Of a stretch of 43,220 nt of DNA, positions 5,523 to 39,406 are shown in pieces; position 1 is the stretch's first letter, and every line of letters starts with the position of its first letter. Source of the DNA: a virus (Duplodnaviria > Heunggongvirae > Uroviricota > Caudoviricetes); IMG/VR virus record IMGVR_UViG_2526164633_000017; one strand, given 5' to 3'. Both the position numbers and the translations under genes were made by a program. The notes beneath the pieces are model-generated. The model saw only the letters and a program-made list of their open reading frames with translations, was not told the DNA's origin and did not search any database.

Positions 5523-5559
5523 GTAAGCGTGCAGCAAGAACCGTATTGACGGGGATGTG

Positions 5560-7098
5560 TTATTCAGTCGGCAGTGCTACGCGCCAGGGGAGCAGTTCGC
5601 CGACCCGGTTTATCGGCCAGTCGGCTATGACGTCAAGGACATAGCGGAGGTAGCTTTCTGGCTCCACTCCGTTCAGTTTGCACGTCCCGATCAGGCTGTA
5701 CAGCAGCGCTCCCCGCTCTCCTCCATGATCCGAACCGAAGAACAGGTAGTTTTTGCGGCCCAGACTGACCATCCGCAACGCATTTTCAGCGATGTTATTG
5801 TCCGCCTCAGCCCAGCCATCATCTGCATAGTACGTCAGCGCCGGCCACTGGTTCAGGGCGTATGCGAACGCTTTCGCCAGTTCTGAGTGTCGCGACAGGG
5901 TTTTCATCTTTTCACGCAGCCAGCTTTCCAGGGATTTCAGCAGCGGTTTCGTTTTCAACTGACGTTCGGCAAGGCGCTGCTCCGCCGTCATTCCCCTTAT
6001 CTCTGCCTCGATGGCGTACAGTTCGCCGATCCGTTTCAGCGCTTCCTCCGTCAGGGCTGACGGGGTGCGAACGTGCACATCGTGGATTTTACGGCGGGCG
6101 TGAGCCCAACAGGCGGCTTCCGTTATCCGGCCATCCCGGTACAGCTCGTTGAACCCGGCGTATGCATCCGCCTGCAGTACACCACTGAACCCCGCAAGAT
6201 GGGTCTGCGGATGGATGCCTTTTCTGTCCGGGCTGTAAGCGAACAACACCGCCGGCGCCAGCGTTGACCCGGCGTTACGGTCGTCACGAACGTAGGTCCA
6301 TAACCGCCCGGTCTTCGTTTTCTTATTGCCTGGCAACAGCACCGGGACAGGCGTGTCATCAGCATGGAGCTTACCGTCAGTCAGCACATAGTCCTGAAGC
6401 GCTTCTTCCAGCGGTGACAGTAGCCGGCAGCATGCATCCACCCAGCCCGACAGCAGTGAACGACTCAGCTCCACGCCCTGGCGGCCGTACATTTCAGACT
6501 GGCGGTACAGCGGGGTGTGCTCTGCATACTTTGAGATCAGCACGCGGGCCAGCAGCCCCGGTCCTGCGATACCCCGCTCGATGGGCCGTGAAGGCGCGGG
6601 GGCCTGCACGATGGCATCGCACTGAGTACAGGCATGCTTTTCACGTACAGTCCGGATAACCCGGAAGGCGCTGCGCATCAACTCCAGCTGTTCGGCGGCA
6701 TCCTCACCCAGATAGCTCAGTGAGCCTCCACATTCCGGGCAGCATGATGCTGCCGGCAGCAGCCGTTTTTCATCGCGGGGGAGTGATTCGGGGAACGGTT
6801 TGCGGGTGCGGGTTTGACGCAGCGGGCGCTGCACGGCCGGGTCGTCAACCCGACCGGTAAGGGTATCACTTTCTTTCTGAAGTGCCTTCAGGTCAGCTTC
6901 CATCTGTGCGATACGACGGGAGACTTTTTCGGAGCGGCTGCCGAAGTTCATCCGGCGCAGCTTATCCAGCTGTGCCTGCAGATGGTCTATTTCGCGTTCA
7001 CGCTCGTTCAGCTTTTCCAGCAGGGCACGGTTCAGCGCCTCCTGTTCGGCAAGGAGACGTTTCAGTGCATTGATATCGTCAGGAAGTGAGCTGCTCAT
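5560..7098 (-). CDS. tnpC: IS66-family transposase (large ORF)
   Basis: 512-aa ORF with N-terminal leucine-zipper-like region, CPECGG zinc-finger motif and DDE-type core; typical third ORF of IS66 elements. Confidence 0.8.
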
Positions 7099-7146
7099 AC
7101 CGGGTATATTACCAGGCTCATTCAGCGTCGACCAGGATAAAGAGGC

Positions 7147-7494
7147 TTACAACATAGTCAGGGACGTAAGCAGTCTTTTAGGCTGCCGCCAGTCGATACC
7201 TTCCAGCAGCATCGCCAGCTGTGCCGGTGTGAGGAACACTTTGCCATCCCGGGCTGACGGCCAGGCGAAGCGGCCGCGCTCCAGCCGTTTGGTCAGCAGA
7301 CACAGTCCATCGCCGGTAGACCAGAGGAGCTTTACCTGACTGCCATTACGCCCACGGAAGATAAAAACGTGACCTGACATCGGATCGTCTTTCAGCGTCG
7401 TCTGCACCTTTGCCGCCAGGCCGTTGAAGCCGTTTCTCATATCGGTGATGCCAGCGACCAGCCAGATCTTTGTCCCTGATGGTAATGGGATCAA
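7147..7494 (-). CDS. tnpB: IS66-family accessory protein (Orf2/TnpB)
   Basis: 115-aa ORF MIPLPSGTKIWLVAGITDMRNGFNGL..., overlaps upstream ORF stop; IS66 second ORF. Confidence 0.8.
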   Translation of the reverse strand: MIPLPSGTKIWLVAGITDMRNGFNGLAAKVQTTLKDDPMSGHVFIFRGRNGSQVKLLWSTGDGLCLLTKRLERGRFAWPSARDGKVFLTPAQLAMLLEGIDWRQPKRLLTSLTML

Positions 7495-7895
7495 CGTTTG
7501 AGCTCCCGTATCAGCAGGTTCAGGATATTTTCGCTGATGGCACCATTCAGACGGAGTGATCCGTGCCGGAACGTCACTTCACAGCTGATATTGAGTGATT
7601 CAGGTGTCGCAGCAGCTACAGGTTGTGACCGGGGGGAGGTTGTAGGGACAACATCTTCGGCATCAAGTGTTATCGGGAGCAGCTCAGGCACGTTGTTTTC
7701 TGTTGTTGAAGGAGGACGTAGTTTTCCTTCGCGCCAGTACTGGCGCCACTTGAACAGCAAATTATCGTTGATCCCATGCTCACGAGCGAGTTGCGCTACG
7801 GAGATCTCTGGTCGATGCGAGAGTTCAACCATTTTGATTTTGAACTCAACGGGATAATTAGGGCTTTTTTTACGCACTGCGGTTAATGATTTCAT
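7491..7895 (-). CDS. tnpA: IS66-family accessory protein (Orf1/TnpA, HTH)
   Basis: 134-aa ORF with HTH-like segment (SVAQLAREHGINDNLLFKWRQ); first ORF of IS66 arrangement. Confidence 0.8.
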   Translation of the reverse strand: MKSLTAVRKKSPNYPVEFKIKMVELSHRPEISVAQLAREHGINDNLLFKWRQYWREGKLRPPSTTENNVPELLPITLDAEDVVPTTSPRSQPVAAATPESLNISCEVTFRHGSLRLNGAISENILNLLIRELKR

Positions 7896-7976
7896 GGATA
7901 GCGTCCACCATATTTGGTGTCCACTATTCTCTCAGGAATTTCAGGATCTGCCAGACGGTGCTGAGACGACGCTTAC

Positions 7977-8724: not shown

Positions 8725-10797
8725 TTACCAGCCCGTAATGTAGTTATCGCCCGCGTAAATATTCAGCCCCATACCGTCCTCGGTGACGCGGGAACTGGTC
8801 AGACGTAACCCCTCGCCAAGTTCGACGCGCAGCGAGGCTTCCGCATTGACTTTTTGTTCCTGCGGTTCCTTATCCGTGGCCGTCCATTTCTGATACAGGT
8901 CGGTTACAAAACCGCCCAGATACTCCCCGGCGACACTGCCCAGCGTGGCACCGGCAACCGTACCCAGCGGTCCGGCAAGGCTGCCAACGGCACCGCCGAG
9001 CCATGCACCGGCTGTACTGCCAATTGCGCCTGCTTTTTCATGGGTTGACGCCTGCTCATCCATCAGGACGGGGGCAAGCTGGAGTGCCCCCATTACCGGG
9101 CCACCCAGACGTGACAACGCACGACCGGCACCTTTCCCCATCCAGCCCAGCGCCCCGGCACCTTTTGTCACAACCCGACCGATCGCACTGCCTGCAAGTT
9201 TGTTTCCGATACCGGAAAACCACCCGCCAGCGGCACGCCCGGCATCAGCCAGCTTTCCGACCGTTCCCGTAACCAGTTGCCCGGCAGCACTGCCTGCAAG
9301 CCTGCTCAGAAGACCGGATTTACCGGGTAAAGGTAATGGTGCAGGCCGTGCCGTTACCGGTACGCCGGGTGGGGGTAATGCCAGTACAGGGCGTGGTGCA
9401 GGTAATGCCAGCGGCTGTGGCCCGGACAGCAATAACGGCTGGCGGGGTAACAGCGGGGCCATTCTTCCGCCGCTCCGTACGCGACGACCGCCGCCACTCC
9501 CGTAGCCACCAAATCCACGGGGCCAGTTGATGACAAACACACGCTGAATGCCGATACCCTGCAACAGCGTCTCAGACGTCATGGCATCCGGGACCGGCAG
9601 CCCTGCCTGCCCACGTTTGCGGTTTCGCATCCAGCGCCACATACGACGCCCGGTTTTAAACGGATAACTGGCAACCTGCCATGAGGGTTTTGCCACGGCC
9701 CAGCCTGCTCTCAGGGCTTTATTGGCAAGCCAGACAGACACCAGAACAGCAGCCAGTTTTTTCAGGCTGACAATATTCTGGTCAACCCATGCCAGCGCAT
9801 CTTTACCCGGTTTCAGCCAGCGCCATAACTCCTGCGCCGCGATTTTTACCGTTCTGAACGTGGTCAGAAATTTCTGACCAATGTTTTCTGCCAGTGCGTC
9901 AAGTTCCCCGGATTTATCCGCCATGTCGTGCCAGTTAAGCACCCGGCGCATCTCGTTCTTGATTTCTTCAAAGGGGCCGCTGTTTGCCACCTTTATGCGA
10001 AATTCAAGCAGGTTGGCTTCCATCTGGGCGAACATCCCGTCCCAGGAGTTCATCGCACTGGCCTGTGCACCTTTTGACTGTTCTGACAGCGTTCTGAATA
10101 CCGTCAGAATGGATTTCAGGCCCAGCTTGCCCTTTGTACCCAGATCACGGATTTTTTTAACGTCCGTTCCCGTTGCATCCGCCAGCGCCTGATAAACGTT
10201 GATACCGTAACCGGTCAGCAGGTTGGCATCCGCCGCTGTGATTTGCTGGCGGGCAAACATCTGTTTCAGTTGCAGTGAGGCACCCTGGGCAGTGGGTAAA
10301 TCCCAGCCGTGCATGGCCCCCTGATCCTGCAACATGGTGATGAACTGTTTCGTCTGTTCATCCGTCATGCCGAAGCCTTTCGACGAACGGATCTCATCCA
10401 GAACACCACTCAGCCCCCACGTGGTGTCCTTCGCGTTCTGCTTTGCCCAGGCCATCATGGCCTGCGCTCTGACCTTATCGCCGTGATACAGCGAGTTCAT
10501 GGCGATGATCTGCTGCTCACGCTGGGCGGCTGCACCAATAAACAGTTTATTGGCGGTGTAACCCACGCCAGCGATACCCAGCGCCCCGGCTGACAGCATT
10601 CGGAATGTACGGGTTGACAGTGAACCCATTCTGTCAATGGCACCAGAAACGCGCACAACCTCCATACGCAGGGCACGAAGGGAACTTTGCCCGCTACGGG
10701 ACAGGGCGTTTATCTGGTTCGAATACTGGCGGGAACGCCGGGAAAGATTGCCATTAAGATCAATAATGACAGACGCCTTTAAGCGTTTCCCGGTCAT
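8725..10797 (-). CDS. Tail tape measure protein
   Basis: 690-aa ORF, Gly/Ala/Pro-rich C-terminal half, located between tail chaperone/tube genes and baseplate genes. Confidence 0.85.
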
Positions 10798-14806: not shown

Positions 14807-14840
14807 AACACATGCTCCTCCTTTTCCTTTAAATCAGGTT

Positions 14841-14864
14841 AAAAGGCGGTCTGAACCGCCTTTT
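14841..14864 (-). terminator. Rho-independent terminator-like hairpin after major head gene
   Basis: AAAAGGCGGT-CTGA-ACCGCCTTTT: 10-bp perfect stem, 4-nt loop, A-run on one side and T-run on the other, in the 66-bp gap after the capsid gene stop. Confidence 0.6.
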
Positions 14865-14872
14865 AATGACGG

Positions 14873-16872: not shown

Positions 16873-17068
16873 GTCCTGCTGCTCATCATGGTTTGTGAGC
16901 AGTCAGTTTGCGGGAGGTGCGGGAAAATCTGGGGTTATGCTATTTGAGTACTGGAGAAAGAAAGTGGAAGGAAGATAAAACGGGATTCATACACCGTTAA
17001 ATACCGGTTTAAAAATCCCGTGGCGCGTTTTAAAAAATCTGTGCGGCTGATTTCATGTCTGATTCCGT
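16873..17068 (-). promoter_or_regulatory. Candidate late promoter region upstream of protease/scaffold gene (P_I-equivalent)
   Basis: 196-bp non-coding gap in otherwise tightly packed operon; on the transcribed strand contains GCATAACCCCAG about 110 nt upstream of the ATG. In Mu a C-dependent late promoter lies upstream of gene I. Confidence 0.4.
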
Positions 17069-17539: not shown

Positions 17540-18891
17540 TTATTCACCTCCACATGCCCCTCCAGTACGTCAATCATCCCGTCAGCAATCGCGGCTTCAA
17601 GCGACTGTGCAGATACGCGGCTGATACTGACCAGCACATCCGCACGGTCATTCTGCCTGCCGACTGTCTGTGATGTTCTGACTACAATCCGGGCCATGCC
17701 GTCACGGGTTGCCACAACATACAGCAACTGGTGGTTCTCCCTGTCCCACAATACTGCCTGTGGTTTTGCCATCAGCGACGGCAGACGCTGTAAATCTTCC
17801 GGTTTCAGGGCGGCATCAGCAGTGGTCGCCAGACTTTTCCCGTTCATCACAAGCAGACGGGCTGGCATATTCCCGGTGCGCTGATGTACGGCTTCAGCTA
17901 CCGATTCCGTCATAAAACCCAGTGCCCGGATTTCATGAGCGGTCTGACGTGATCCTGCCAGGCGTTTAAGCCAGAGGGAAAAAGCAAGCTGACGCTCCCG
18001 GCTGTTATTCAGCGTCTGAACAACCTGCTCACGCAACTGCGCGTCGCGAATTTCCACCAGTTTTCGAATCAGTGCCTGATCCGTACCAAACGCCGCCGAA
18101 CCCGGGTTATATGACCAGCCCACATCCGGCGTCATTTTTACCCGACCGTTGTCAAACGTGGTTGACGATGTGCGGAAAATCTCTCCGGTGCTTTCATCCA
18201 TACCGGCGTCCACTTCGCGGGTATTCATGAATGACGCACCATAACTGACCTGTAGCCCCAGTTCTTTCATGCGGGCCGCAGACACCGCCCGGACGCGACA
18301 GCGGCAGTTCCAGCCATTGGGCGGGTAATGCGTCTGCCAGAAAATGTCGTCATACCTGAAAACCATATTGTGCAGCCGCGCATGTTCCGGGCGTGTTCTG
18401 CCATCCATAACGGCAACGTACTGCCAGTATGGATACAAATCTGCGGTATTCATCATCTGCGCATAACGTCCTGCCCCATACGCCGTACGGGTATTGACGT
18501 TATAAATGGTTGCCAGACGACGCGGACTGCCCAGCTCGATTACCTTTGCGTTTCCCTCTGCATCCACGATGATTTGTTTTCCCCACCATCCGAGTTTTTG
18601 CAGCCGGGGGGCCAGTGTGCGGGTAAATTCCTCACGGGTGATGCCTTCACTGACAGCCCGCTCCACTTCCTCACGGATTGTGGTCAGGACATCCATCCGG
18701 GTGGCTTTGGCAACGGTAAAGGCGCGGGCGTGCGCGTCTGCCAGTTGTTCGTACCAGTTCCAGGTGATGTTGTAGCCTTTGGCGCGGAAATACGCGACAG
18801 CCTCCTTTGGCGGGAGGCGTGCGGCATACGCCAGATCAATGGTCTGCTGCGGCATCCAGACGCCCCCATATATCGGCAACAAAAATGGCAC
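17536..18891 (-). CDS. Minor head/head morphogenesis protein (Mu F/gp30-like)
   Basis: 451-aa ORF after portal gene; true start may be the internal ATG at 18855 because 18836-18891 overlaps portal 3' end. Confidence 0.8.
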   Translation of the reverse strand: MPFLLPIYGGVWMPQQTIDLAYAARLPPKEAVAYFRAKGYNITWNWYEQLADAHARAFTVAKATRMDVLTTIREEVERAVSEGITREEFTRTLAPRLQKLGWWGKQIIVDAEGNAKVIELGSPRRLATIYNVNTRTAYGAGRYAQMMNTADLYPYWQYVAVMDGRTRPEHARLHNMVFRYDDIFWQTHYPPNGWNCRCRVRAVSAARMKELGLQVSYGASFMNTREVDAGMDESTGEIFRTSSTTFDNGRVKMTPDVGWSYNPGSAAFGTDQALIRKLVEIRDAQLREQVVQTLNNSRERQLAFSLWLKRLAGSRQTAHEIRALGFMTESVAEAVHQRTGNMPARLLVMNGKSLATTADAALKPEDLQRLPSLMAKPQAVLWDRENHQLLYVVATRDGMARIVVRTSQTVGRQNDRADVLVSISRVSAQSLEAAIADGMIDVLEGHVEVNK

Positions 18892-20374
18892 GGGTCAGCA
18901 TGTCGATAAGTTCTGCATCATCCATCTGCGGATATAATGAAGCGGCTTTGTTCATGGCGGCTTCCGGGCCATCTTTCAGCACAGAAAAAATGACGGGTTT
19001 CAGCAGGGGATCAACCGAACGCTGCCAGTCTTCCGGTGAAACGCCCATCCGGTCGACATCATCCTCCTGCGGGATATCATCAGCGGATAATGCGGCTTCT
19101 TTCTGCGGACCGTTATCCGGGACAACCGGTTGAGCAGTAAACACGGCTTCGTCACCGACCGGCTGTGGAATATGGAGTTTTTCCTGTATCCAGGAGACCG
19201 GAATACGCATTCCCGCCGCCAGTTTCGGAATGGCGTCAGACAGTGCCGTAATATCACCCGCTTCACTGGTATCAAACACAATGCCCGGCAGGCGGTTAAT
19301 ATCAATGGTGCTGTCACTGTTCAGTGCCAGCAGGGGATAAATCAGATCACGGTTAATACTGCGGGCAAGCTGGCCCACATCCGCGTTACGGATTTCCCGG
19401 CGAACCTCATCATGCACTTCACCCAGCGACCGTGCGCCTTTATCGCCAGCCTCTGTGGTCAGGGTGCCGCCCAGAATGGCTTTTGAAATCGCTTTTTCTG
19501 CCCAGCCAATCATCGCCATAAAGGGGTCTGACTGACCATCTGCGGCGCTCTGAAAATCCAGCGTCATCCCCATCGGAATAATGCCACCGGCACGTCGCCC
19601 GATATCCATCACGGCCTGCATCAGCGTGGCTTTCTCGCGGTTCGTGGAGCCGGTCGGATATTTACCGACGCGCATGGGGAGTCCGTAAATTTCCAGAAAC
19701 TCTGCAAAATCACGCACGGAATAGTTTTTAAAAATAAAAGGCCAGATAAGCGTGCGCACAAGGCCATTGGTGCCGACATACCCGGTGCGGGATTTGGCCC
19801 GGTGCATAAACCAGCCGAACGGTTGCAGCTCCAGCCCGTGATAAGACGCATCACGCAGGTGTAATTCGTTCAGATTGTCGGGGTTCGCGCAGAACAGCGC
19901 CGGATCGCGATGATGCAGCGCCACCGGCACGCGCATTTTCCCCAGCCAGCCCCATTCAATCTCCTGCATGGAATAGCCCTTGAGAATGGCATCACCGGCA
20001 TCAAACAGGGCATCTTCAAACCACGCCGCATCATGCAGATATTCATTCAGCATGTCAGCGTCTTTTTTCTCCTGTGCGCTGGCATCACGTGCCGGAGCGA
20101 TGCGCCATTCCAGCGCCTGAATGGCAAGGCGGCGTTTGCTCAGTTCGGAAAAAAGGTGGGTGTCCTTTTCTTCCATATCAAAGGCCAGGTCAGCCTGTGC
20201 TGTCAGATCACCGCGTTCGGCATCACGCAGCATCTGCGCGGCCCGGTTCGGCGTCACACCACTGGAAGGATGCTCCTGCGTACGCTTCATGACCATTGCC
20301 AGCTCATCGCTGCGGGTCTGCATTTCATCGTCAAAATCAAACGGCTGCCCGGAAATATCCAGAATACGGCCCAT
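18836..20374 (-). CDS. Portal protein (Mu gp29-like)
   Basis: 512-aa ORF immediately after large terminase gene. Confidence 0.85.
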   Translation of the reverse strand: MGRILDISGQPFDFDDEMQTRSDELAMVMKRTQEHPSSGVTPNRAAQMLRDAERGDLTAQADLAFDMEEKDTHLFSELSKRRLAIQALEWRIAPARDASAQEKKDADMLNEYLHDAAWFEDALFDAGDAILKGYSMQEIEWGWLGKMRVPVALHHRDPALFCANPDNLNELHLRDASYHGLELQPFGWFMHRAKSRTGYVGTNGLVRTLIWPFIFKNYSVRDFAEFLEIYGLPMRVGKYPTGSTNREKATLMQAVMDIGRRAGGIIPMGMTLDFQSAADGQSDPFMAMIGWAEKAISKAILGGTLTTEAGDKGARSLGEVHDEVRREIRNADVGQLARSINRDLIYPLLALNSDSTIDINRLPGIVFDTSEAGDITALSDAIPKLAAGMRIPVSWIQEKLHIPQPVGDEAVFTAQPVVPDNGPQKEAALSADDIPQEDDVDRMGVSPEDWQRSVDPLLKPVIFSVLKDGPEAAMNKAASLYPQMDDAELIDMLTRAIFVADIWGRLDAAADH

Positions 20375-23702: not shown

Positions 23703-23949
23703 GATGTTCTGTCTCGTCTGCCAGCCGCGCGGCACGATTTGCGGCACGGATAGCGGAAAATACCTGCATCGTCTGTTCCTGACCGTGTAACAACCATTCA
23801 GCCGTGTTGCGGGCCTGTTGCTCCGTCTGTAATTCACGGCGCAGCGTCTGGTTATCGTGGCGGGTGCTGTCCAGCCTGTGCCACAACACCCCGGACAAAA
23901 CGGCGGCAAACACGGCTGCCAGCAGTAAACTTTTACTGGCGAAGGTCAT
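23563..23949 (-). CDS. Inner-membrane spanin (Rz-like)
   Basis: 128-aa ORF with N-terminal TM segment (SLLLAAVFAAVLSGVLW) and charged coiled-coil periplasmic domain; directly after endolysin. Confidence 0.75.
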   Translation of the reverse strand: MTFASKSLLLAAVFAAVLSGVLWHRLDSTRHDNQTLRRELQTEQQARNTAEWLLHGQEQTMQVFSAIRAANRAARLADETEHHDAKQKITTAITGDNCSTRPVPAVAADRLRELEKRTRAIGGDPARN

Positions 23950-24451
23950 CCGCCCCCCTGATATTCCAGATAGCCATTTCCACTTCGCGACGGTTCATCA
24001 GTCCTTTCCATTTATGGCCTGCGGCAAACACCCAGCGGGCCATCTGGTCACGCGCTCCGGCGTAATCACCGGCATTGAGTTTTTTCAGCAGCGTTGATTT
24101 ACTGAATGCGGTAACACCGGTGTTGAAAATAAACGTTGCCAGCGCCGTTTTCTGATATGGCGTCAGCGGCACCCTGACAAGACGATCGATTGCCGCATAA
24201 ACCGGTTTTAAATCACTGTCGAGGAGAGCCATACACTCCGCATGGCTGTAACGGCGCATTTCGATATCCGGCCCGGTATGCCCCACACAGACCGAAAGCA
24301 CACCGCCAATATCGCGGTAAGGCATATAAGCGATATTTTCCAGGTGGATCAGAGACTGACGGGTCATTTCCTGATAACCACCCACACCGCCACCGGCAAT
24401 CGTTACAGCCAGCAGTGTGGCTTTCAGTTTTTTTGGTATCCCCGCCATCAT
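23933..24451 (-). CDS. lys: Endolysin, lysozyme-like with N-terminal signal-anchor-release (SAR) type segment
   Basis: 172-aa ORF; Gly/Ala-rich weakly hydrophobic N-terminus (LKATLLAVTIAGGGVGGY) followed by E-x8-D catalytic-type motif (ENIAYMPYRD) typical of T4-lysozyme-type muramidases. Confidence 0.8.
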   Translation of the reverse strand: MMAGIPKKLKATLLAVTIAGGGVGGYQEMTRQSLIHLENIAYMPYRDIGGVLSVCVGHTGPDIEMRRYSHAECMALLDSDLKPVYAAIDRLVRVPLTPYQKTALATFIFNTGVTAFSKSTLLKKLNAGDYAGARDQMARWVFAAGHKWKGLMNRREVEMAIWNIRGADDLRQ

Positions 24452-24521
24452 GCTTCCCTGAAAAAATGCTCTGATGGCAGTCTAAAAAATCAGGTGGCAG
24501 GTGCGGGATTATGGTGACAGG

Positions 24522-24548
24522 AAATAACCGGCAGGATGCCGGTTATTT
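24522..24548 (-). promoter_or_regulatory. Perfect interrupted palindrome AAATAACCGGC-N5-GCCGGTTATTT between C and lys; candidate activator site for late lys promoter and/or transcript end
   Basis: 11-bp arms at 24522-24532 and 24538-24548, overlapping the stop codon of the C-like gene, about 75 bp upstream of lys ATG. Confidence 0.45.
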
Positions 24549-24965
24549 TGGGCTTTCAGGTGAGAACAGATCAGGCTGATGACGTCGTGTATGCAGCTTT
24601 CTCTGGCGGGCAATAATCTGGTAGATCTGCGGCTGGGACAGGCGGTACTGGCGACGCAGTTCTTCCATGTTACGACCATTAAACTGGCAGTAAAGCAAAT
24701 CGTCGCGTAACGCGGTCAGGATCGTATCGCCGCAGGGGATGTAAAACTGCCGTCCACCCAGAAAACAGGACAGGGCAACGGCCTGTTTACGGGCAAGTTC
24801 ACGGGGATTGCTGACGTTCTGGCGTTTCAGTTCGTTTTCCAGAACATCAATCAGATCAACCACCGAACGGGGCCAGCGTGATTCCAGTTCCGGGGCCGGG
24901 ATGTTATCAATATGTCCGATTAACTGGCGAATTGCCGGATCGTGTTCAAATAAATCATGCTGCAT
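24543..24965 (-). CDS. C: Late transcription activator (Mu C-like, Mor/C family)
   Basis: 140-aa ORF; Mor/C family features (C-terminal HTH, QFNGRN motif shared with the Mor-like paralogue at 25944..26333); precedes lysis and morphogenesis genes. Confidence 0.85.
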   Translation of the reverse strand: MQHDLFEHDPAIRQLIGHIDNIPAPELESRWPRSVVDLIDVLENELKRQNVSNPRELARKQAVALSCFLGGRQFYIPCGDTILTALRDDLLYCQFNGRNMEELRRQYRLSQPQIYQIIARQRKLHTRRHQPDLFSPESPK

Positions 24966-25077: not shown

Positions 25078-25308
25078 TCACTGAATTTTCTGTACACAAT
25101 ATTTTTCCTTATAACGTTGACAGTGGTGAAGAATTTCCGGCATATCAACTGACTGCCAGCCTTTCATGTAATAACTGCCGTGGGTGCCATCGTGCCCTGT
25201 GTAATCCATTGGCTTTGGTGGTGGGCCTCCGGCCTCCCGATGTAATACCTCCTGTCGTAAACGTTCACGCCTGCCGAACTGAAAGGACGCATCCCACCCT
25301 TTACCCAT
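25078..25308 (-). CDS. Hypothetical small protein
   Basis: ORF 25078..25362 in track; internal ATG at 25306-25308 avoids most overlap with upstream gene. No recognisable domain. Confidence 0.3.
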   Translation of the reverse strand: MGKGWDASFQFGRRERLRQEVLHREAGGPPPKPMDYTGHDGTHGSYYMKGWQSVDMPEILHHCQRYKEKYCVQKIQ

Positions 25309-25861
25309 GCAGAACCTCCCGACAGGCGCTGGCGAGCAGATCCAGACGGTTAAACCAGCCATTCAGATATTTCCCCTGCGAGGCACTGGATTTGATAATC
25401 CCTGCGTAATAGCGGGAACGACGCAGGAAGCACTGCAACAGCAGCCAGTCAGTATCGGCACGCAGAACGGCTGCGCGTGTGTTTTTACCGACGATGCCAT
25501 CATCATCAACACCTGCTGCCGCCTGGAGGATCTGAATCGCGCGTTTAACACCGTGCTGAACGGCAGCATCAAAAACGAATAAGGAAACGCCATCAGGCCA
25601 TTCGTTACACTTTGCCGCCAGCCAGTAATCACGCCAGTAGATCTGCGCCGCCTGCTCGCGGGTTAAATCCTTAATGCGGGTATCAGGTTTTCCGTCACCG
25701 TTAACATCGGTTTTGCCATCAATAACGCCGTCGCGACGGTCAGAAATACCGTATTTCGTTTCGCCGCCACGGTCGGCAGGATCATTAACATAGCCACCTT
25801 CAACATCAGGGCGTATAACGAAATTCAGCGAATGAAGGAATGCAGGGGAAAACTCAGGCAT
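25301..25861 (-). CDS. Peptidoglycan hydrolase, GH108-like N-terminal domain with C-terminal peptidoglycan-binding-like domain
   Basis: 186-aa ORF with motif EGGYVNDPADRGGETKYGI near N-terminus (characteristic of glycoside hydrolase family 108) and DGIVGKNT-type peptidoglycan-binding region. Confidence 0.7.
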   Translation of the reverse strand: MPEFSPAFLHSLNFVIRPDVEGGYVNDPADRGGETKYGISDRRDGVIDGKTDVNGDGKPDTRIKDLTREQAAQIYWRDYWLAAKCNEWPDGVSLFVFDAAVQHGVKRAIQILQAAAGVDDDGIVGKNTRAAVLRADTDWLLLQCFLRRSRYYAGIIKSSASQGKYLNGWFNRLDLLASACREVLHG

Positions 25862-25913
25862 GTTGCCCTCCTGTCATGAACGTTTTATCGTCACAACAGA
25901 ATATTGAGGGCGT

Positions 25914-25938
25914 AAAAAAAGCCGGATTAACCGGCTTT
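25914..25938 (-). terminator. Rho-independent terminator after mor-like gene (end of early transcript)
   Basis: On transcribed strand: AGCCGG-TTAAT-CCGGCT followed by T7 run, immediately after the mor-like stop. Confidence 0.65.
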
Positions 25939-27458: not shown

Positions 27459-27778
27459 TTTGCGGCCCTCAGAATAAATTCAGGATAAAATTTCAGACTC
27501 ATTTGCCGTAACACATCCAGTGCAGCAACGGCTGCTGATTTATCGTTGCCATCAGCAATAGCGCGGAGATTTTCAATAATCCAGTGAGGACTCAGTGACT
27601 CAGCAATAATGCCAAACCGGTACGCCATGACCTCATCAATAGCTTTTTCATGAGACGGCTCATATACAAAATTCACAAAGTCATGCACTTCTTTTTTCGG
27701 CAAACCACCGGCAATCAGCAGGGCGGCAAGCTCTTCTGATTTTGAAAATACACCATTATTCATGTCACTCACCTTCAC
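27455..27778 (-). CDS. Hypothetical early protein
   Basis: 107-aa ORF. Confidence 0.55.
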   Translation of the reverse strand: MKVSDMNNGVFSKSEELAALLIAGGLPKKEVHDFVNFVYEPSHEKAIDEVMAYRFGIIAESLSPHWIIENLRAIADGNDKSAAVAALDVLRQMSLKFYPEFILRAAK

Positions 27779-30356: not shown

Positions 30357-30376
30357 TGTCAGCGTTCCTTTGCGAA

Positions 30377-30646
30377 TTAATGTTTAACCGCATTCACCGG
30401 ATGTGGTACTAAATCACATTCAGCTTCCATACCCACTTTCTTCATAGTGGTCAGCATCTCATCTTTGGCCTTTTTAATAATTTCAGGAGCCATAGTCAGG
30501 ACGATATTTGCCAGTAAATCATGAGGCCCGATATTTTCCGTTGGCGAGATATCTGCAAGACATGCTTTTGCATCCAGAACTTCTCTGCGCCCATTGCAAC
30601 CGTCACTACTTTCCAGCCATGTAAACTCAAAGATAACTTTTGCCAT
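30377..30646 (-). CDS. Hypothetical early protein
   Basis: 89-aa ORF. Confidence 0.5.
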   Translation of the reverse strand: MAKVIFEFTWLESSDGCNGRREVLDAKACLADISPTENIGPHDLLANIVLTMAPEIIKKAKDEMLTTMKKVGMEAECDLVPHPVNAVKH

Positions 30647-32110: not shown

Positions 32111-34204
32111 TTAAATGGCTTTTTTACGTCTGTTCTGTTCCAGAATATCCAGCGAATGATTCAGATATTCATCACGCTCAGTTTCGTATTCATCATCATG
32201 CTCTTCCTCACACCTCAACGGCTGAACGGTCACCACATTACCAACAGGGCGATAAACATTATCCAGCCAGGGTTCTATCGTTTTTTGTTCAATAACCTGA
32301 ATACCTTCATCCTCAGCATCACGTATTTTTTCCTCAGCACGCTTGCGCATTCCTTTAATACGTTGCTGTTGTTTGTGATATTCAGCCGTAACAGGAAAGG
32401 CTGCGCGTTTATTGCCGTTCCATATCGCCTCACAGATAAAGCTACCGTCCTTACGGCGTACCGTAATTCGCTCGGCATCGTGAATGTCATAGCTGATAAG
32501 TACCTTGCGACCATGTTCATCACGTAGCTCTGGCGCGTAGTAAATATTGTTCAGCCACTGGATTTCGCAGCGTCTTACCGGACGCTCCACCATCGGGCGG
32601 AACATGTCACGCAGCTCAATATCACTCAGCCACTCAATTTCAGTGTCTTCTTCCGCTAAGCGTTTTTTTCTGAACTCTGCCGGGCTGTAATGTTTTCCGT
32701 TTGGTTTCATCGGCAATTCAGAATGTGGGCGGTTGTTGTACCACTCCACCCCCTCACGGATAGCCTCAATCAGTTCTGACCAAGACGGCAGCTCGCGCAT
32801 TGCGGCTTTCTGACGGGCGCTCAGTGGCTTGTCCTGTTGCAGGGCATTAAACGCTGAACGCAGATCACGATTAAGTACTCGCAACGATTCCCGGTCAGCC
32901 CCCTTGCCGAAATAGGTGCGATACCTCCTTGCTATACGCATCGGTAACGTCCGGTTCAGGCGCTCAATAATGCCGCGTCCCTGCGGATTTCCCGCAATAC
33001 CAGTGGGGTGGTTAATCCCCAGGCGGGGCAGAATCCCGACGATCTCTTTATCCAGCATATCTGCCGTTTCACCGGAACCATTATCCGAGTAATACAGGAA
33101 TGGTTTTCCGTGATTGCGAATGCCGTGTTGTATCGCCCCGGCAACAGCGAACACGTTCTCCGCAAGATCAAGACTCCAGCCAACCACAAACCGGGTTCCA
33201 CCGTCGATCACAAACGTAACTTCCGGTGAAAATGGACGCCCGTGAACCGGATGCGCACATTTCAGCTTCATACCGTGACCGTCACCAATCCAGACATAAT
33301 TCACCGGCATAGCTGTCCAGTCGCGGCGGGTGAATCCTTCAAGCTGACGGTATTCACTGCCGGTAACGCGCCCTTTTTGTTTCACCACTTCCGGCAGTTT
33401 TTTCATGGCATACCGGACAACATCATAGGAAGGCATCACCTCCAGCATGTATGGTTCGTCCGCATGGCGACGCTGCCAATCAGCGACAAAATCCTCGTAT
33501 GCTTCTGACATAGGCCTGCCGTTAGCCTGACGATACTGCGCCAGAAATTCAGGCAGCCAGCTAATTTCTTCCGGTTTTATTTCGTCGCGCTTTCCTGGTG
33601 CCAGTAACAGCAATCGTTCTGCGGCATTCTGTGCTTTGTTAAACGCAGCTATCCAACGTTTGAGCGTAATTGCGCTCAGAGTTCGCTCTTTCCCTTTACG
33701 GGCATTAGCAGTAATGACCAAAGATTCCAGGCGTTCTTCCAGGTTACCCTGCGCTAACCGCGACACAATAAAACGTATAGCGCTGGCACAACTGAATCCC
33801 GGCTCCTGGCTAATTCGTAGAACTTCACAGACAAGAGCAATACGCGCTTCTGCAACTTTACGTTGATTTTCCGTAAGCGCATTCAGACGCTCTTCTACCA
33901 ATTGTGGCGAACCGCGATATGCCTCAACAGGCTGTACAACATTTTGTTTGCGTTCACGCTTTACAGGAGGCTGGGTAGTTATCTCCTGCGGGGCGGTTGC
34001 CATCAGTTGAGCTACATGGCGCTCACGTAACGCCCGTTGTGTAACCGGAGGGAGGCAGTCGATGCTGTATTCAATGGTTTTTGAACCCGCACGTTTGCGC
34101 CTGAAATGCTCAGATGAGGCCAGTTTCCTTATGGAATACCGCACCCCTTGCGCAGTTCCCGGCATACCCGGTAGCCCTACAAGCTCATTAACTGACACAA
34201 ACAT
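32111..34204 (-). CDS. A: DDE transposase (MuA family)
   Basis: 697-aa ORF; N-terminal winged-helix-like DNA-binding region, DDE-type core (IGDGHG...), C-terminus ...DEYETERDEYLNHSLDILEQNRRKKAI. Confidence 0.9.
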   Translation of the reverse strand: MFVSVNELVGLPGMPGTAQGVRYSIRKLASSEHFRRKRAGSKTIEYSIDCLPPVTQRALRERHVAQLMATAPQEITTQPPVKRERKQNVVQPVEAYRGSPQLVEERLNALTENQRKVAEARIALVCEVLRISQEPGFSCASAIRFIVSRLAQGNLEERLESLVITANARKGKERTLSAITLKRWIAAFNKAQNAAERLLLLAPGKRDEIKPEEISWLPEFLAQYRQANGRPMSEAYEDFVADWQRRHADEPYMLEVMPSYDVVRYAMKKLPEVVKQKGRVTGSEYRQLEGFTRRDWTAMPVNYVWIGDGHGMKLKCAHPVHGRPFSPEVTFVIDGGTRFVVGWSLDLAENVFAVAGAIQHGIRNHGKPFLYYSDNGSGETADMLDKEIVGILPRLGINHPTGIAGNPQGRGIIERLNRTLPMRIARRYRTYFGKGADRESLRVLNRDLRSAFNALQQDKPLSARQKAAMRELPSWSELIEAIREGVEWYNNRPHSELPMKPNGKHYSPAEFRKKRLAEEDTEIEWLSDIELRDMFRPMVERPVRRCEIQWLNNIYYAPELRDEHGRKVLISYDIHDAERITVRRKDGSFICEAIWNGNKRAAFPVTAEYHKQQQRIKGMRKRAEEKIRDAEDEGIQVIEQKTIEPWLDNVYRPVGNVVTVQPLRCEEEHDDEYETERDEYLNHSLDILEQNRRKKAI

Positions 34205-34206
34205 TT

Positions 34207-34443
34207 TTATGCCACCTTACGAGCGTAACGGCTGGGCCAGATCTCCTCCGGCGCAACACCAATAGCATCAGCAATAATGCGCTCATATTTTGGGCATTTG
34301 CGGTACAGGGCATTCTTTAAAGAATCCTGGTTTAAACCGGCTTCAATGGACAGAGAGCGTAAAGTAAAACCTTTTACATGCACCGCCGCGACAACATGCG
34401 CGGGGTGCCAGTCCTGTTTAACAACTTCATTTATAGACATCAT
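34207..34443 (-). CDS. ner: Ner-like DNA-binding regulator (Nlp/Ner family)
   Basis: ORF track 34207..34515; conserved Ner-type sequence starts at the internal ATGATG (34438-34443): MSINEVVKQDWHPAHVVAAV...IIADAIGVAPEEIWPSRY. Confidence 0.8.
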   Translation of the reverse strand: MMSINEVVKQDWHPAHVVAAVHVKGFTLRSLSIEAGLNQDSLKNALYRKCPKYERIIADAIGVAPEEIWPSRYARKVA

Positions 34444-34623
34444 TCGTTTATCCTTAAAAGTTATCTGTGCGGATAACACCGCCGGATAATCTCTGCGGAT
34501 AAAGTATTGATCCACATGTGGCGCATGTAAAGCAAAAATTTGATTTTCTTTTGCCTGATGTGGATCATCTGTGTTTTCTATTGAAATTATCCTTTTGTAT
34601 CAATTAGATAAGAGGAAAGAAAA
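34444..34623. promoter_or_regulatory. Divergent early promoter/operator region between ner and repressor gene
   Basis: Three direct repeats GCGGATAA/CCGGATAA at 34469, 34482 and 34495 (13-bp spacing); palindrome TTATC-N6-GATAA (34461-34476); inverted pair TGATCCACA (34508-34516) / TGTGGATCA (34559-34567); 10-bp palindrome CCACATGTGG (34511-34520). Confidence 0.6.
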
Positions 34624-35169
34624 ATGGATAAGCTGAAAGGAAAGTCACTTTCTTTGCCGGAAGTGACAAAAGAAAGTATCCCGGAGCGTTTGAGAGAATT
34701 AATTGGAAAAAGAAGTGTAAGGGCTGCTGCGAAAGATTGGGGGTTGTCTTTTTCTACTTTAAACAATTACCTGACGCGAGGTACTGAACCTTCACTCAGT
34801 GTGGCTCGGCAGATAGCTGCAATTGAAGGGGTTACTATCGAATGGATATGTGGATCACATGATGATTCATATGAGAATCACCCAATTTCAACTAACACGC
34901 ATAATGAGAATACAAAACTCATTATGAACATCATTAACGCCTTGGATGCAAAGGATATTGAGCGACTATCTAAGACTCTTGCCCTCAATGGTGCTAAGTA
35001 TCTGACTCAAATGTTGGAACCCGAAAATCAAGGCTTACTGCGTCTTGAAGGACGAAAACGTGTCGCCGCGCTGCTATTAGATGATTTACCTGATGAGCGT
35101 ATCAGAGAGATTTTGGAAGAAATTGAGAGCAGCAAACTCTCAAGTAGTGTAAAATCGAGAGCGGGCTAG
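34624..35169 (+). CDS. c: Prophage repressor (Mu c-like)
   Basis: 181-aa ORF divergent from ner-A-B operon; HTH-like segment (VRAAAKDWGLSFSTLNNYLTRG); RBS AGGAAAG upstream. Confidence 0.75.
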   Translation: MDKLKGKSLSLPEVTKESIPERLRELIGKRSVRAAAKDWGLSFSTLNNYLTRGTEPSLSVARQIAAIEGVTIEWICGSHDDSYENHPISTNTHNENTKLIMNIINALDAKDIERLSKTLALNGAKYLTQMLEPENQGLLRLEGRKRVAALLLDDLPDERIREILEEIESSKLSSSVKSRAG

Positions 35170-35421: not shown

Positions 35422-35727
35422 TTGCTTATTGCCAGATGGGAACTGACAGCAGAACAGGCTGTTACACAGCAGTTAAAAAATGAGGTGTCAAAAGGAAAAC
35501 TGATTGACACCGGGTTCTGTATTTTTGCCCTCAGTAAGCTGGCAATGGCGTTATCCAGTACGCTTGATTCCATCCCTTTATCCATGCAGCGACAGTTTCC
35601 TGATTTAACACCGCGCCATCTTGACCATCTGAAAACCCTTATTGCGAAGGGGGCAAATCAGTGTGCGCGGGCAGGGGATAAATTACCGGATTTACTCGAT
35701 GAATATATCAGAGCAACAACTGAATAA
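35422..35727 (+). pseudogene. nu1: Lambdoid terminase small subunit (Nu1-like), C-terminal half only; 5' part displaced by Mu-like prophage insertion
   Basis: Reading frame matches the C-terminal half of lambda Nu1 as I recall it (...FCIFALSKLA...LDSIPLSMQRQFP...LLDEYI...); frame hits a stop at 35389-35391 inside the terminal repeat region; no ATG start (track start is TTG). Confidence 0.65.
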
Positions 35728-37627
35728 TATGATGGCTGCCGTTTCGGTTGCGCTGCAGCCTCTGGTCAGGGTTGTACCAATGACGGCAGTTGAATGGGCT
35801 GATCAAAATTATTATCTGCCTAAAGAATCTTCATATGGTGAGGGAGAATGGAAAACGCTGCCATTCCAGATCGCCATTATGAACTGTATGGGTAACGACC
35901 AGGTTCGCACGGTTAACCTGATTAAATCTGCCCGTGTTGGCTATACAAAGATGTTGCTGGGGGTGGTCGGGTATTTTATTGAGCATAAATCCCGAAACAG
36001 TCTGCTTTTTCAGCCCACGGATTCTGCCGCTGAAGATTTTATGAAGTCTCACGTGGAGGCGACGATTCGGAACGTGCCATGCCTGAAAGACCTTTCCCCA
36101 TGGCTGGGTCGTAAACATCGTGACAATACTCTCACGCTGAAACGCTTTTCATCGGGCGTCGGTTTCTGGTGCCTGGGCGGCGCTGCCGCCAAAAACTACC
36201 GTGAAAAATCCGTGGACGTGGTCTGCTATGACGAACTTTCCTCGTTCGAGCCGGATGTCGAAAAAGAGGGCTCGCCAACCCTGCTGGGGGATAAGCGTAT
36301 TGAGGGGTCGGTGTGGCCAAAATCCATTCGCGGCTCGACGCCTAAAATCAAAGGCACCTGCCAGATCGAAAAAGCCGCTAACGAGTCGGCGCATTTTATG
36401 CGTTTTTATGTGCCCTGCCCGCACTGTGGGGAGGAGCAGTATCTGAAATTTGGCGATGAGTCCACGCCTTTTGGGCTTAAATGGGAGAAGGACAGCCCTG
36501 AAAGTGTTTTCTACCTCTGTGAACATCATGGCTGCGTGATCCATCAGTCTGAGCTTGACCAGAGCAACGGGCGGTGGATCTGTGAAAACACGGGCATGTG
36601 GACCCGTGACGGTCTGACGTTTTTCAGCGCCCGGGGTGATGAAATTCCGCCGCCGCGCTCCATCATGTTCCATATCTGGACGGCGTACAGTCCGTTCACC
36701 ACCTGGGTACAGATTGTCTATGACTGGCTGGATGCACTGAAAGATCCCAACGGCCTGAAAACCTTTGTGAACACCACGCTGGGCGAGACCTGGGAAGAGG
36801 CCGTGGGCGAAAAACTCGATCACCAGGTACTGATGGATAAGGTGGTGCGTTACACGGCGGCGGTGCCTGCCCGGGTGGTTTATCTGACGGCGGGCATTGA
36901 CTCGCAGCGAAACCGTTTTGAGATGTATGTCTGGGGATGGGCTCCGGGAGAGGAAGCCTTTCTGGTGGATAAAATCATCATTATGGGGCGTCCTGATGAG
37001 GAAGAGACGCTGTTACGTGTGGATGCGGCGATCAACAAAAAATACCGCCATGCGGATGGCACCGAAATGACTATTTCCCGTGTCTGCTGGGACACCGGGG
37101 GGATCGATGGTGAAATTGTTTATCAGAGATCAAAAAAACACGGTGTTTTCCGGGTGCTGCCGGTAAAAGGCGCATCTGTCTATGGCAAGCCGGTGATCAC
37201 CATGCCAAAAACCCGCAATCAGCGGGGCGTGTATCTGTGTGAAGTGGGAACGGATACCGCAAAAGAAATTCTCTATGCCCGTATGAAAGCCGATCCCACG
37301 CCTGCGGATGAAGCCACGTCGTATGCCATCCGTTTTCCTGATGATCCGGAGATTTTTTCGCAGACAGAGGCGCAGCAACTGGTGGCGGAAGAGCTGGTGG
37401 AGAAGTGGGAAAAAGGAAAGATGCGTCTGCTGTGGGATAACAAAAAGCGGCGTAACGAAGCGCTGGACTGCCTGGTGTATGCCTACGCGGCATTACGTGT
37501 GTCCGTGCAACGCTGGCAGCTTGATCTGGCTGTACTGGCAAAATCCCGGGAAGAAGAGACGACCCGGCCAACCCTGAAAGAACTGGCAGCGAAGCTGTCC
37601 GGAGGAGTGAATGGTTACAGTCGCTGA
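35699..37627 (+). CDS. A: Lambdoid terminase large subunit (gpA-like)
   Basis: ORF track 35642..37627; ATG at 35699 gives MNISEQQLNNMMAAVS...TAVEWADQNYYLPKES..., 642 aa, lambda A-like throughout. Confidence 0.9.
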   Translation: MNISEQQLNNMMAAVSVALQPLVRVVPMTAVEWADQNYYLPKESSYGEGEWKTLPFQIAIMNCMGNDQVRTVNLIKSARVGYTKMLLGVVGYFIEHKSRNSLLFQPTDSAAEDFMKSHVEATIRNVPCLKDLSPWLGRKHRDNTLTLKRFSSGVGFWCLGGAAAKNYREKSVDVVCYDELSSFEPDVEKEGSPTLLGDKRIEGSVWPKSIRGSTPKIKGTCQIEKAANESAHFMRFYVPCPHCGEEQYLKFGDESTPFGLKWEKDSPESVFYLCEHHGCVIHQSELDQSNGRWICENTGMWTRDGLTFFSARGDEIPPPRSIMFHIWTAYSPFTTWVQIVYDWLDALKDPNGLKTFVNTTLGETWEEAVGEKLDHQVLMDKVVRYTAAVPARVVYLTAGIDSQRNRFEMYVWGWAPGEEAFLVDKIIIMGRPDEEETLLRVDAAINKKYRHADGTEMTISRVCWDTGGIDGEIVYQRSKKHGVFRVLPVKGASVYGKPVITMPKTRNQRGVYLCEVGTDTAKEILYARMKADPTPADEATSYAIRFPDDPEIFSQTEAQQLVAEELVEKWEKGKMRLLWDNKKRRNEALDCLVYAYAALRVSVQRWQLDLAVLAKSREEETTRPTLKELAAKLSGGVNGYSR

Positions 37628-37817
37628 ACTGCAGGCGCTGCGTCAGGCGCGCCTTGATTTATTAACCGGTAAACGGGTGGTGTCTGTCCAGAAAGATGGT
37701 CGCAGAATTGAATATACGGCGGCTTCTCTGGATGAGCTTAACCGGGCGATCAATGATGCGGAGTCGGTACTGGGGACAACCCGACGTCGCCGTCGTCCGC
37801 TGGGAGTGAGGTTATGA
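37611..37817 (+). CDS. W: Head-tail joining protein (gpW-like)
   Basis: 68-aa ORF ...LLTGKRVVSVQKDGRRIEYTAASL... Confidence 0.85.
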   Translation: MVTVAELQALRQARLDLLTGKRVVSVQKDGRRIEYTAASLDELNRAINDAESVLGTTRRRRRPLGVRL

Positions 37818-39406
37818 AACGAACGCCTGTCCTGATTGATGTGAACGGCGTTCCGCTTCGTGAGAGTCTCAGCTACAACGGGGGCGGCGCAGGATTTGGC
37901 GGGCAAATGGCGGAGTGGTTGCCACCGGCGCAGAGTGTCGATGCGGCCCTGCTGCCCGCGTTGCGTCTGGGGAATGCCCGGGCAGATGATCTGGTGCGCA
38001 ATAACGGAATAGCGGCTAATGCGGTGGCCCTGCATAAGGATCACATTGTCGGGCATATGTTTCTGATCAGCTACCGTCCGAACTGGCGCTGGCTGGGGAT
38101 GCGGGAGACCGCAGCAAAAAGCTTTGTCGATGAGGTGGAGGCGGCCTGGTCGGAATACGCAGAAGGGATGTCTGGCGAGATCGACGTGGAAGGAAAACGC
38201 ACATTTACGGAGTTTATCCGTGAAGGTGTTGGCGTTCATGCGTTTAACGGCGAAATCTTTGTGCAGCCGGTCTGGGATACGGAAACCACGCAGTTATTCC
38301 GTACGCGTTTTAAAGCCGTGAGTCCGAAACGGGTGGACACGCCAGGACACGGTATGGGGAACCGTTTTCTGCGGGCCGGGGTGGAGGTCGATCGATATGG
38401 CCGTGCCGTTGCGTACCATATCTGTGAGGATGATTTTCCTCGCTCCGGGAGTGGACGATGGGAACGGATCCCGCGTGAACTTCCCACCGGGCGTCCGGCC
38501 ATGCTGCATATTTTCGAGCCGGTGGAGGACGGGCAGACCCGTGGGGCTAATCAGTTTTACAGCGTCATGGAACGGCTGAAGATGCTGGATTCCCTGCAGG
38601 CAACACAGCTTCAGTCGGCCATTGTGAAAGCCATGTATGCAGCGACGATTGAAAGTGAACTTGATACCGAAAAGGCCTTTGAATATATCGCCGGCGCGCC
38701 ACAGGAGCAGAAGGATAATCCGCTTATTAATATTCTGGAGAAGTTCTCCAGCTGGTATGACACGAATAACGTGACACTGGGCGGTGTCAAAATTCCGCAC
38801 CTTTTCCCTGGTGATGATCTGAAACTACAGACTGCGCAGGATTCAGACAATGGATTTTCTGCGCTTGAACAGGCGCTGCTGCGGTATATCGCCGCCGGTC
38901 TTGGCGTTTCCTACGAACAGTTGTCCCGTGATTACTCGAAGGTCAGTTATTCAAGTGCCAGGGCCTCTGCCAATGAGTCGTGGCGCTATTTTATGGGGCG
39001 GCGAAAATTTATTGCGGCCCGGCTGGCCACGCAGATGTTTTCCTGCTGGCTGGAAGAGGCACTTCTTCGGGGGATTATCCGTCCGCCACGGGCGCGTTTT
39101 GATTTTTATCAGGCGCGATCAGCCTGGTCACGGGCAGAGTGGATTGGTGCCGGAAGAATGGCCATTGACGGGCTCAAGGAGGTTCAGGAATCGGTGATGC
39201 GCATTGAGGCCGGACTGAGCACGTATGAGAAAGAGCTGGCGCTGATGGGCGAGGATTATCAGGACATTTTCCGCCAGCAGGTCAGGGAATCTGCAGAGCG
39301 GCAAAAAGCCGGACTCTCACGTCCGGTGTGGATAGCGCAGGCGTATCAGCAGCAGATAGCGGAGAGTCGCAGGCCGGAAGAGGAGACAACACCACGTGAG
39401 ACGTAA
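37814..39406 (+). CDS. B: Lambdoid portal protein (gpB-like)
   Basis: 530-aa ORF following W. Confidence 0.9.
   Translation: MKRTPVLIDVNGVPLRESLSYNGGGAGFGGQMAEWLPPAQSVDAALLPALRLGNARADDLVRNNGIAANAVALHKDHIVGHMFLISYRPNWRWLGMRETAAKSFVDEVEAAWSEYAEGMSGEIDVEGKRTFTEFIREGVGVHAFNGEIFVQPVWDTETTQLFRTRFKAVSPKRVDTPGHGMGNRFLRAGVEVDRYGRAVAYHICEDDFPRSGSGRWERIPRELPTGRPAMLHIFEPVEDGQTRGANQFYSVMERLKMLDSLQATQLQSAIVKAMYAATIESELDTEKAFEYIAGAPQEQKDNPLINILEKFSSWYDTNNVTLGGVKIPHLFPGDDLKLQTAQDSDNGFSALEQALLRYIAAGLGVSYEQLSRDYSKVSYSSARASANESWRYFMGRRKFIAARLATQMFSCWLEEALLRGIIRPPRARFDFYQARSAWSRAEWIGAGRMAIDGLKEVQESVMRIEAGLSTYEKELALMGEDYQDIFRQQVRESAERQKAGLSRPVWIAQAYQQQIAESRRPEEETTPRET

Follow-up and report, generated by a model that had tools for sequence, protein, structure and literature searches.

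A perfect palindrome at the end of gene C in a Mu-type prophage very probably encodes the terminator of the middle transcript and is distinct from the C operator

[quoted passage not shown] The palindrome is an already known, already annotated feature of Mu, the best-studied transposable phage, whose Plys promoter and operator have been dissected for 35 years. As a terminator, the element would separate the middle from the late transcription class and prevent premature expression of a holin-independent SAR endolysin. The perfect dyad is unfit for defining or searching C-binding sites: the true operator is an inconspicuous imperfect dyad with a CATAAYCCC box, and it lies immediately downstream.

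On the plus strand, window 24522-24548 reads AAATAACCGGCAGGATGCCGGTTATTT, with arms AAATAACCGGCA and TGCCGGTTATTT that pair perfectly over 12 bp around a loop of 3 nt, one pair more than the 11-bp arms given in the preliminary description, which had otherwise located the palindrome correctly. The minus strand is the coding strand for every phage gene nearby, and in this transcript sense the hairpin is AAAUAACCGGCA-UCC-UGCCGGUUAUUU; its stem has a CCGGC/GCCGG core, and GCCGG is followed directly by UUAUUU (5/6 U) and then by CC. At the DNA level this U-tract is TTATTT at 24522..24527 (minus strand), corresponding to -55 to -50 of Plys. [quoted passage not shown] As had been claimed, the palindrome straddles the end of this gene, and the sequence and open reading frame place the TAA stop (24545..24543, minus strand) within the 5' arm of the transcript hairpin. 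Downstream is lys (gp22; 23933..24451, minus strand; Pfam Phage_lysozyme, E 3.8e-36, and Mu annotation), the first late gene past the terminator and Plys, whose product is a SAR endolysin (PMC9239132). From the downstream end of the palindrome it is 70 nt to the first lys ATG (24451) and 73 nt to the ATG annotated in Mu (24448), close to the 75 bp estimated earlier.

Hairpins of this quality are rare by chance. We randomised the window 300 times with a first-order Markov model and counted perfect hairpins that have 12 bp or more in each arm and loops of 3-8 nt. The randomised sequences held 0.037 such hairpins on average, as compared to two loci in the 43-kb window, at 24522-24548 and 14839-14866; each of these two coincides with a terminator annotated in Mu. 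The RNA of the hairpin folds with -16.1 kcal/mol (z = -5.65 against dinucleotide shuffles), and none of 200 shuffles folds as well. An Rfam search of window positions 24200-24800 (E <= 1) returned no match.

That the palindrome terminates the middle transcript had been offered earlier as one of its possible roles, and a number of observations uphold this: firstly, the same element is annotated as 'terminator predicted by TransTermHP' in Mu (AF083977 10383..10406, 24 bp, TAACCGGCATCCTGCCGGTTATTT) and as 'rho-independent terminator' in D108 (GQ357916, 10435..10455), labels that are annotation (TransTermHP in AF083977) and not experiment; secondly, the stable hairpin is followed by UUAUUU; thirdly, it overlaps the stop of C on the sense strand, at the end of the Pm-C operon and before Plys; fourthly, perfect hairpins of this length are rare; and fifthly, the hairpins at the homologous position in relatives covary. 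Window, Mu and D108 agree letter for letter across the hairpin and the upstream half of Plys.

In the mechanism we propose, RNA polymerase passes the C stop and the RNA would fold into the 12-bp hairpin with its CCGGC/GCCGG core; the 3' side of the hairpin would run into UUAUUU, and the transcript would be released about 20 nt past the C stop. Release here would keep middle-phase transcription out of the lysis and head genes until C accumulates, and late transcription would restart at Plys through C bound to the separate imperfect dyad at 24508-24523. Our literature search, outside the original Mu mapping papers, found no Mu transcriptome and no mapped 3' end of the middle transcript. Stoddard and Howe (1990) reportedly mapped where the C transcript ends, a short way beyond the gene; annotation, structure and this reported result together are our grounds for proposing that the middle transcript ends at the hairpin.

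The U-tract is short and interrupted, and is able to pair with the upstream A-tract. A simple promoter and terminator scan of the window did not list the palindrome site because the maximal stem absorbs the T-tract, and we do not count this as evidence against a terminator. A bidirectional terminator was also considered: the antisense U-tract is even better (UUAUUUU), but no convergent transcription unit is evident, and the idea was dropped.

Homologous loci were sought in two rounds, the first with the C protein and the second with a small C profile; genome contigs gave one relative and viral contigs more. All 20 near-identical Mu-type loci in IMG/VR carry the same palindrome. Among the close Mu-type sequences 12 of 200 sites vary, about 1.6 variable sites would be expected in 27 bp, and the palindrome is invariant in loci that were themselves picked by the hairpin core; variation among these close relatives is too sparse to test constraint on the palindrome. 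Eight distinct loci are more diverged, with C proteins 54-67% identical to that of the window. Most of them have a recognisable C box, (A/G)(T/G)AATCCC, 28 nt before TATTCT or TACTCT, as in Mu. In the diverged loci, too, a hairpin lies between the C stop and the Plys-like promoter, with a sequence (ACGACC...GCGCU-CGAG-AGCGC...GGGUUGU or GGCCU...AGGCC) unrelated to that of Mu.

Aligned on a two-helix structure, the eight diverged loci pair in 88 of 88 cells, and in 4 pairs both partners change (for example CG to GC, GC to CG, CG to UA and AU to GC), a result matched by none of 500 shuffles; these figures come from few independent lineages and from a structure derived from the same sequences. 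When the partner columns were slid as a control, pairing fell to 31-52% with at most one double change. RNAalifold recovered the same helices. Many pairs in the relatives' hairpins are G·U on the sense strand; on the opposite strand, or in a DNA site with symmetry, the same positions would read as A·C mismatches. The selected object is therefore the sense transcript and not a DNA dyad. Together, these alignments point to an RNA-level element at the C-lys junction.

On its 3' side the stem ends at -50 in Mu, at -52 in Erwinia-type loci and at -48 in loci of the L058 type. The tails that follow the relatives' hairpins (ACUCAGA, UGUAUUA, CAUAUUG, GAUGACU) contain no convincing U-tract, which has no bearing on the Mu-type element, and these hairpins may be weak terminators or chiefly 3'-end structures. 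Their fold z-scores are modest (-0.8 to -1.9 against mononucleotide shuffles). The relatives have their stop codon 12-20 nt ahead of the stem, and a stop that overlaps the stem is therefore specific to the Mu lineage. In alignment columns 21-39 of the junctions of L049-L058, which have no U-tracts, the internal loop and tetraloop (..GCTG..CTC[G/C]AGAG..) are near-invariant while the stems covary; the pattern suggests a sequence constraint beyond plain pairing. Mu-like phages thus keep the hairpin as a structure and the neighbouring C box as a sequence.

To place the palindrome relative to Plys, annotated in AF083977 at 10403..10469 as 'late promoter activated by C, PMID 2522923', the four annotated Mu late promoters, each of 67 bp, were stacked without gaps. 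Their -10 hexamers (TAGACT, CAAACT, TATCCT and TAAGAT) share columns, and a CATAAcCCC block occupies columns 12-20. With the hexamer set as -12 to -7, column 1 is -53 and column 54 is +1. The Pmom dyad, TTAT-N6-ATAA, is centred at -43.5 in this stack; the C site is a 16-bp imperfect dyad with its centre at -43.5 (Jiang and Howe, 2008; PMC2582627), and because the two values are equal we regard the register as valid.

In this register Plys occupies -53 to +14 (24459..24525, minus strand), with one mismatch to Mu 10403..10469. Its C operator is the 16-bp imperfect dyad TTCCTGTCACCATAAT at 24508..24523 (minus strand), which runs from -51 to -36 with its centre at -43.5 according to the register and the published description (PMC2582627), and which scores 18.9 bits against a matrix of C sites. 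The conserved C box, CATAATCCC, was found at 24505-24513 by a box search, and the -10 hexamer TAGACT (-12 to -7) is at 24479..24484 (minus strand), which would put +1 at 24472. The palindrome extends from -76 to -50 and is centred at -63. Terminator and operator abut, with 2-3 bp in common, and position -53 of Plys sits 3 bp inside the downstream end of the palindrome. The box CATAAYCCC has three copies in the window, all on the phage strand and confined to Plys, PI and PP; Pmom is outside the window, which begins inside gene S, the gin-mom end lying beyond its edge.

Among alternatives to a plain terminator, the one that survives best retains the terminator and gives it a second use: its T-rich 3' arm (-61 to -50) would also contact the alpha-CTD of RNA polymerase or the edge of the C complex at Plys. 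A Plys fragment from -60 to +8 suffices for activation and yields 9506±604 Miller units (100%), as compared to 7705±821 (81%) for -52 to +8, so that the longer construct is about 23% more active, while gel shifts with the two are equal (PMC2582627). The footprint of C on Plys, about -30 to -55, reaches -55, and positions -52 to -50 fall in the mutationally required block of -52 to -34 (PMC2582627). Moreover, in a cryo-EM structure of the C-TAC on Pmom the alpha-CTD touches the DNA that immediately precedes C (bioRxiv 10.1101/2025.05.02.651988), at Pm the alpha-CTD binds A/T-rich DNA next to the upstream edge of the Mor site (PMC4390567), and the 3' end of the hairpin is found at -48 to -52 in three lineages. 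However, the effect in the deletions is small and the published errors almost overlap, compaction of the genome can explain why hairpin and operator abut, and the 3' arm differs in sequence between lineages. We consider this second use possible but unlikely.

A further alternative regards the C-lys junction as a tunable valve and not a plain stop, through gating by the ribosome or a roadblock by C. With the C stop placed in the 5' arm, the hairpin should be occluded by a ribosome that is completing C, and termination would consequently depend on the coupling of C translation to transcription; by analogy with lambda tR2, compared below, the Mu terminator may be leaky or translation-sensitive when C translation is coupled. 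In addition, and speculatively, C that has accumulated at -55 to -30, against the U-tract at -55 to -50, could act as a roadblock for polymerases coming from Pm and increase termination. Such coupling would be in keeping with the position of the hairpin's 3' end, which adjoins the C box at -48 to -52 in three diverged lineages. If true, the valve would allow the phage to control how much transcription leaks early into the gene of the SAR endolysin. We hold this view of the junction to be rather improbable.

Less probable again, and in our estimate distinctly so, is that the hairpin only stabilises or marks the 3' end of a processed middle mRNA, with termination being Rho-dependent or taking place elsewhere. 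The weakness of the U-tract and its lack in the relatives agree with a mere end marker, and under coupled translation a stop codon within the stem should hamper co-transcriptional folding. The shape of the Mu element, in contrast, is canonical, with a GC core running directly into UUAUUU; two independent annotations call it a terminator; and the next promoter begins 0 bp downstream, leaving no space for another terminator before lys.

The preliminary description had further proposed that the palindrome might be the site bound by the dyad-recognising C activator at a lys promoter, and we find it very improbable that it is such a site or an additional one. In favour of such a site, the element is a perfect dyad upstream of a C-dependent promoter, each arm contains ATAACC, similar to the conserved right half of C sites, ATAA(C/T)CCC, and dual use has a precedent in Mu, where the early terminator hairpin overlaps the Mor dyad at Pm (PMC4390567). 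But the palindrome has its centre at -63, away from that of the C dyad at -43.5, and only 6 bp of the palindrome (-55 to -50) are inside the published footprint. The half-sites face outward, ATAA-N15-TTAT as compared to TTAT-N6-ATAA in C sites. Neither the -60 to +8 nor the -52 to +8 construct has an intact palindrome, the latter keeping only 3 bp of it; an intact palindrome is thus unneeded for C binding or activation, since both shortened constructs shift equally and activate to 81-100%. Against a matrix built from the four Mu C sites, the best palindrome-centred match scores -7.7 bits and ranks about 10,600 of 86,404 positions, whereas real C sites score 18.9-21.3 bits; the matrix is circular for the three true sites of the window, which nearly equal its training sequences, and we use only the negative score of the palindrome. 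Finally, in the relatives the sequence of the hairpin is wholly changed while that of the C box is kept. With the wrong centre, geometry and score, and dispensable in published constructs (PMC2582627), the palindrome does not stand as a C-binding site.

The earlier suggestion that it could serve as both terminator and C site is correct only in a trivial sense, in that the T-tract contributes its final 3 bp (-52 to -50) to the required region and 6 bp (-55 to -50) to the footprint. The palindrome shows no similarity to experimentally defined C sites; a transcription start has been mapped downstream, and it belongs to the adjacent site. As for the ATAACCCC motif noted upstream of the protease/scaffold gene, it is real, with CATAACCCC at 16931-16939 (minus strand) being the C box of the late promoter PI, and it is related to the palindrome by nothing beyond the hexamer ATAACC. 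This hexamer is common in its own right: the bare ATAACC occurs 31 times in the window, as compared to 14.9±3.7 expected, none of 100 shuffles reaches 31, and most copies lie away from promoters, an excess that could be due to codon or dipeptide bias. The weakest reading, that of a functionless chance repeat, draws only on the general abundance of short inverted repeats and is next to negligible beside an expectation of 0.037 per window, the fold z-score of -5.65 and covariation at the homologous position in relatives.

The terminator and Plys belong to a Mu-type prophage on the minus strand that, in a comparison of the whole window, extends from the tail-fibre gene S, cut by the left edge, to the transposase end at ~35 kb. 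Around the palindrome the window is 98-99% identical to Escherichia phage Mu, D108, SfMu and several Yersinia 'vB_YpM' phages. Elsewhere it departs from Mu at several places. Gene N/gp43 is interrupted at 5523-7969 by a 2.45-kb insertion (Mu junction 26944/26958), an element of the IS66 family with three open reading frames, all on the minus strand: HTH_Tnp_1 (7491..7895), TnpB_IS66 (7147..7494) and DDE_Tnp_IS66 (5560..7098). A prophage carrying this insertion is probably defective in tail and baseplate assembly. In the middle operon, window 25094-25896 differs from Mu in that it lacks Mu E19 (9462-9832) and has an E18 homologue with only 79% identity, and a 186-amino-acid protein with glycosyl-hydrolase-108 and PG_binding_3 domains is encoded directly after Pm (25301..25861, minus strand). 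In the Yersinia phages vB_YpM_5 and vB_YpM_6 this part of the middle operon is arranged in the same way, with 98.3% identity. The protein would give the phage a second peptidoglycan hydrolase during the middle phase.

Further differences are found in the early region. At the left (early) end, window 32111-35169 has no likeness to Mu at the DNA level beyond Mu nucleotide 3227; the transposase has 697 amino acids as compared to 663 for Mu A, and an HTH_3 repressor-like open reading frame is present at 34624..35169 (plus strand). Two short early-region segments, 27461-27754 and 30371-30627, also take the place of Mu sequence. In the flank past the Mu left end (35642-40678) we found a lambda-type large terminase with gpA ATPase and nuclease domains, a lambda-family portal and an S49 prohead protease. 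Because the flank carries these lambda-type genes, the Mu-type prophage appears to have transposed into, or beside, a lambdoid prophage.

The arrangement at the C-lys junction recurs in Mu, which also has terminators at Pm, either inside the promoter or directly before it, and shortly before PI. The latter is a long imperfect hairpin at 16980-17021 of the window, equivalent to the Mu terminator 17908..17953 and 24 bp upstream of PI. The other perfect 12-bp hairpin of the window, at 14839-14866 (TTAAAAGGCGGT-CTGA-ACCGCCTTTTAA), is the Mu terminator 20068..20087, after the major capsid gene T. The terminator of the early transcript, after mor, is at about 25914-25935 (AF083977 9179..9200) and consists of GCCGG-TTAAT-CCGGC followed by T7. 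Binding of Mor at the palindrome itself was considered and rejected: the right arm, GCCGGTTA, looks like a portion of the Mor dyad because both elements are CCGGC-core hairpins, but it offers one half-site only.

Compared with known systems, the element is closest to the terminator after gene C in Mu and D108: the hairpin and U-tract sequence, and their place relative to the C stop and Plys, are all the same in the window. Outside the hairpin the window differs from Mu by one silent-context change 5 nt upstream of the stem (C-terminal residue of C, S vs T), and the two Plys promoters differ by one base, at about +4. The early terminator at Pm resembles the C-lys hairpin in its CCGGC/GCCGG core and flanking A and T runs and, likewise, ends one temporal transcript class right at the activator-dependent promoter of the next. 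The two differ in how terminator and activator site are combined. The Pm hairpin sits over the Mor dyad AGTAA-AGCCGG-TTAAT, which would cover its 5' arm and loop, a placement we infer from the sequence and the published description (PMC4390567); at Plys hairpin and dyad only touch, over 2-3 bp, with no activator dyad inside the terminator hairpin.

The C operators of Mu share with the palindrome the ATAACC/ATAATC hexamer, a dyad character and a side-by-side position. They are, however, imperfect dyads of 16 bp, centred at -43.5, with the arrangement TTAT-N6-ATAA and the box CATAAYCCC, whereas the palindrome is perfect, spans 27 bp, is centred at -63 and has its half-sites reversed. [quoted passage not shown] Here, too, the hairpin and U-tract lie within the footprint of a ribosome at the upstream stop. 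Unlike in the lambda series, the stop of C is inside the stem (a distance of -3 nt).
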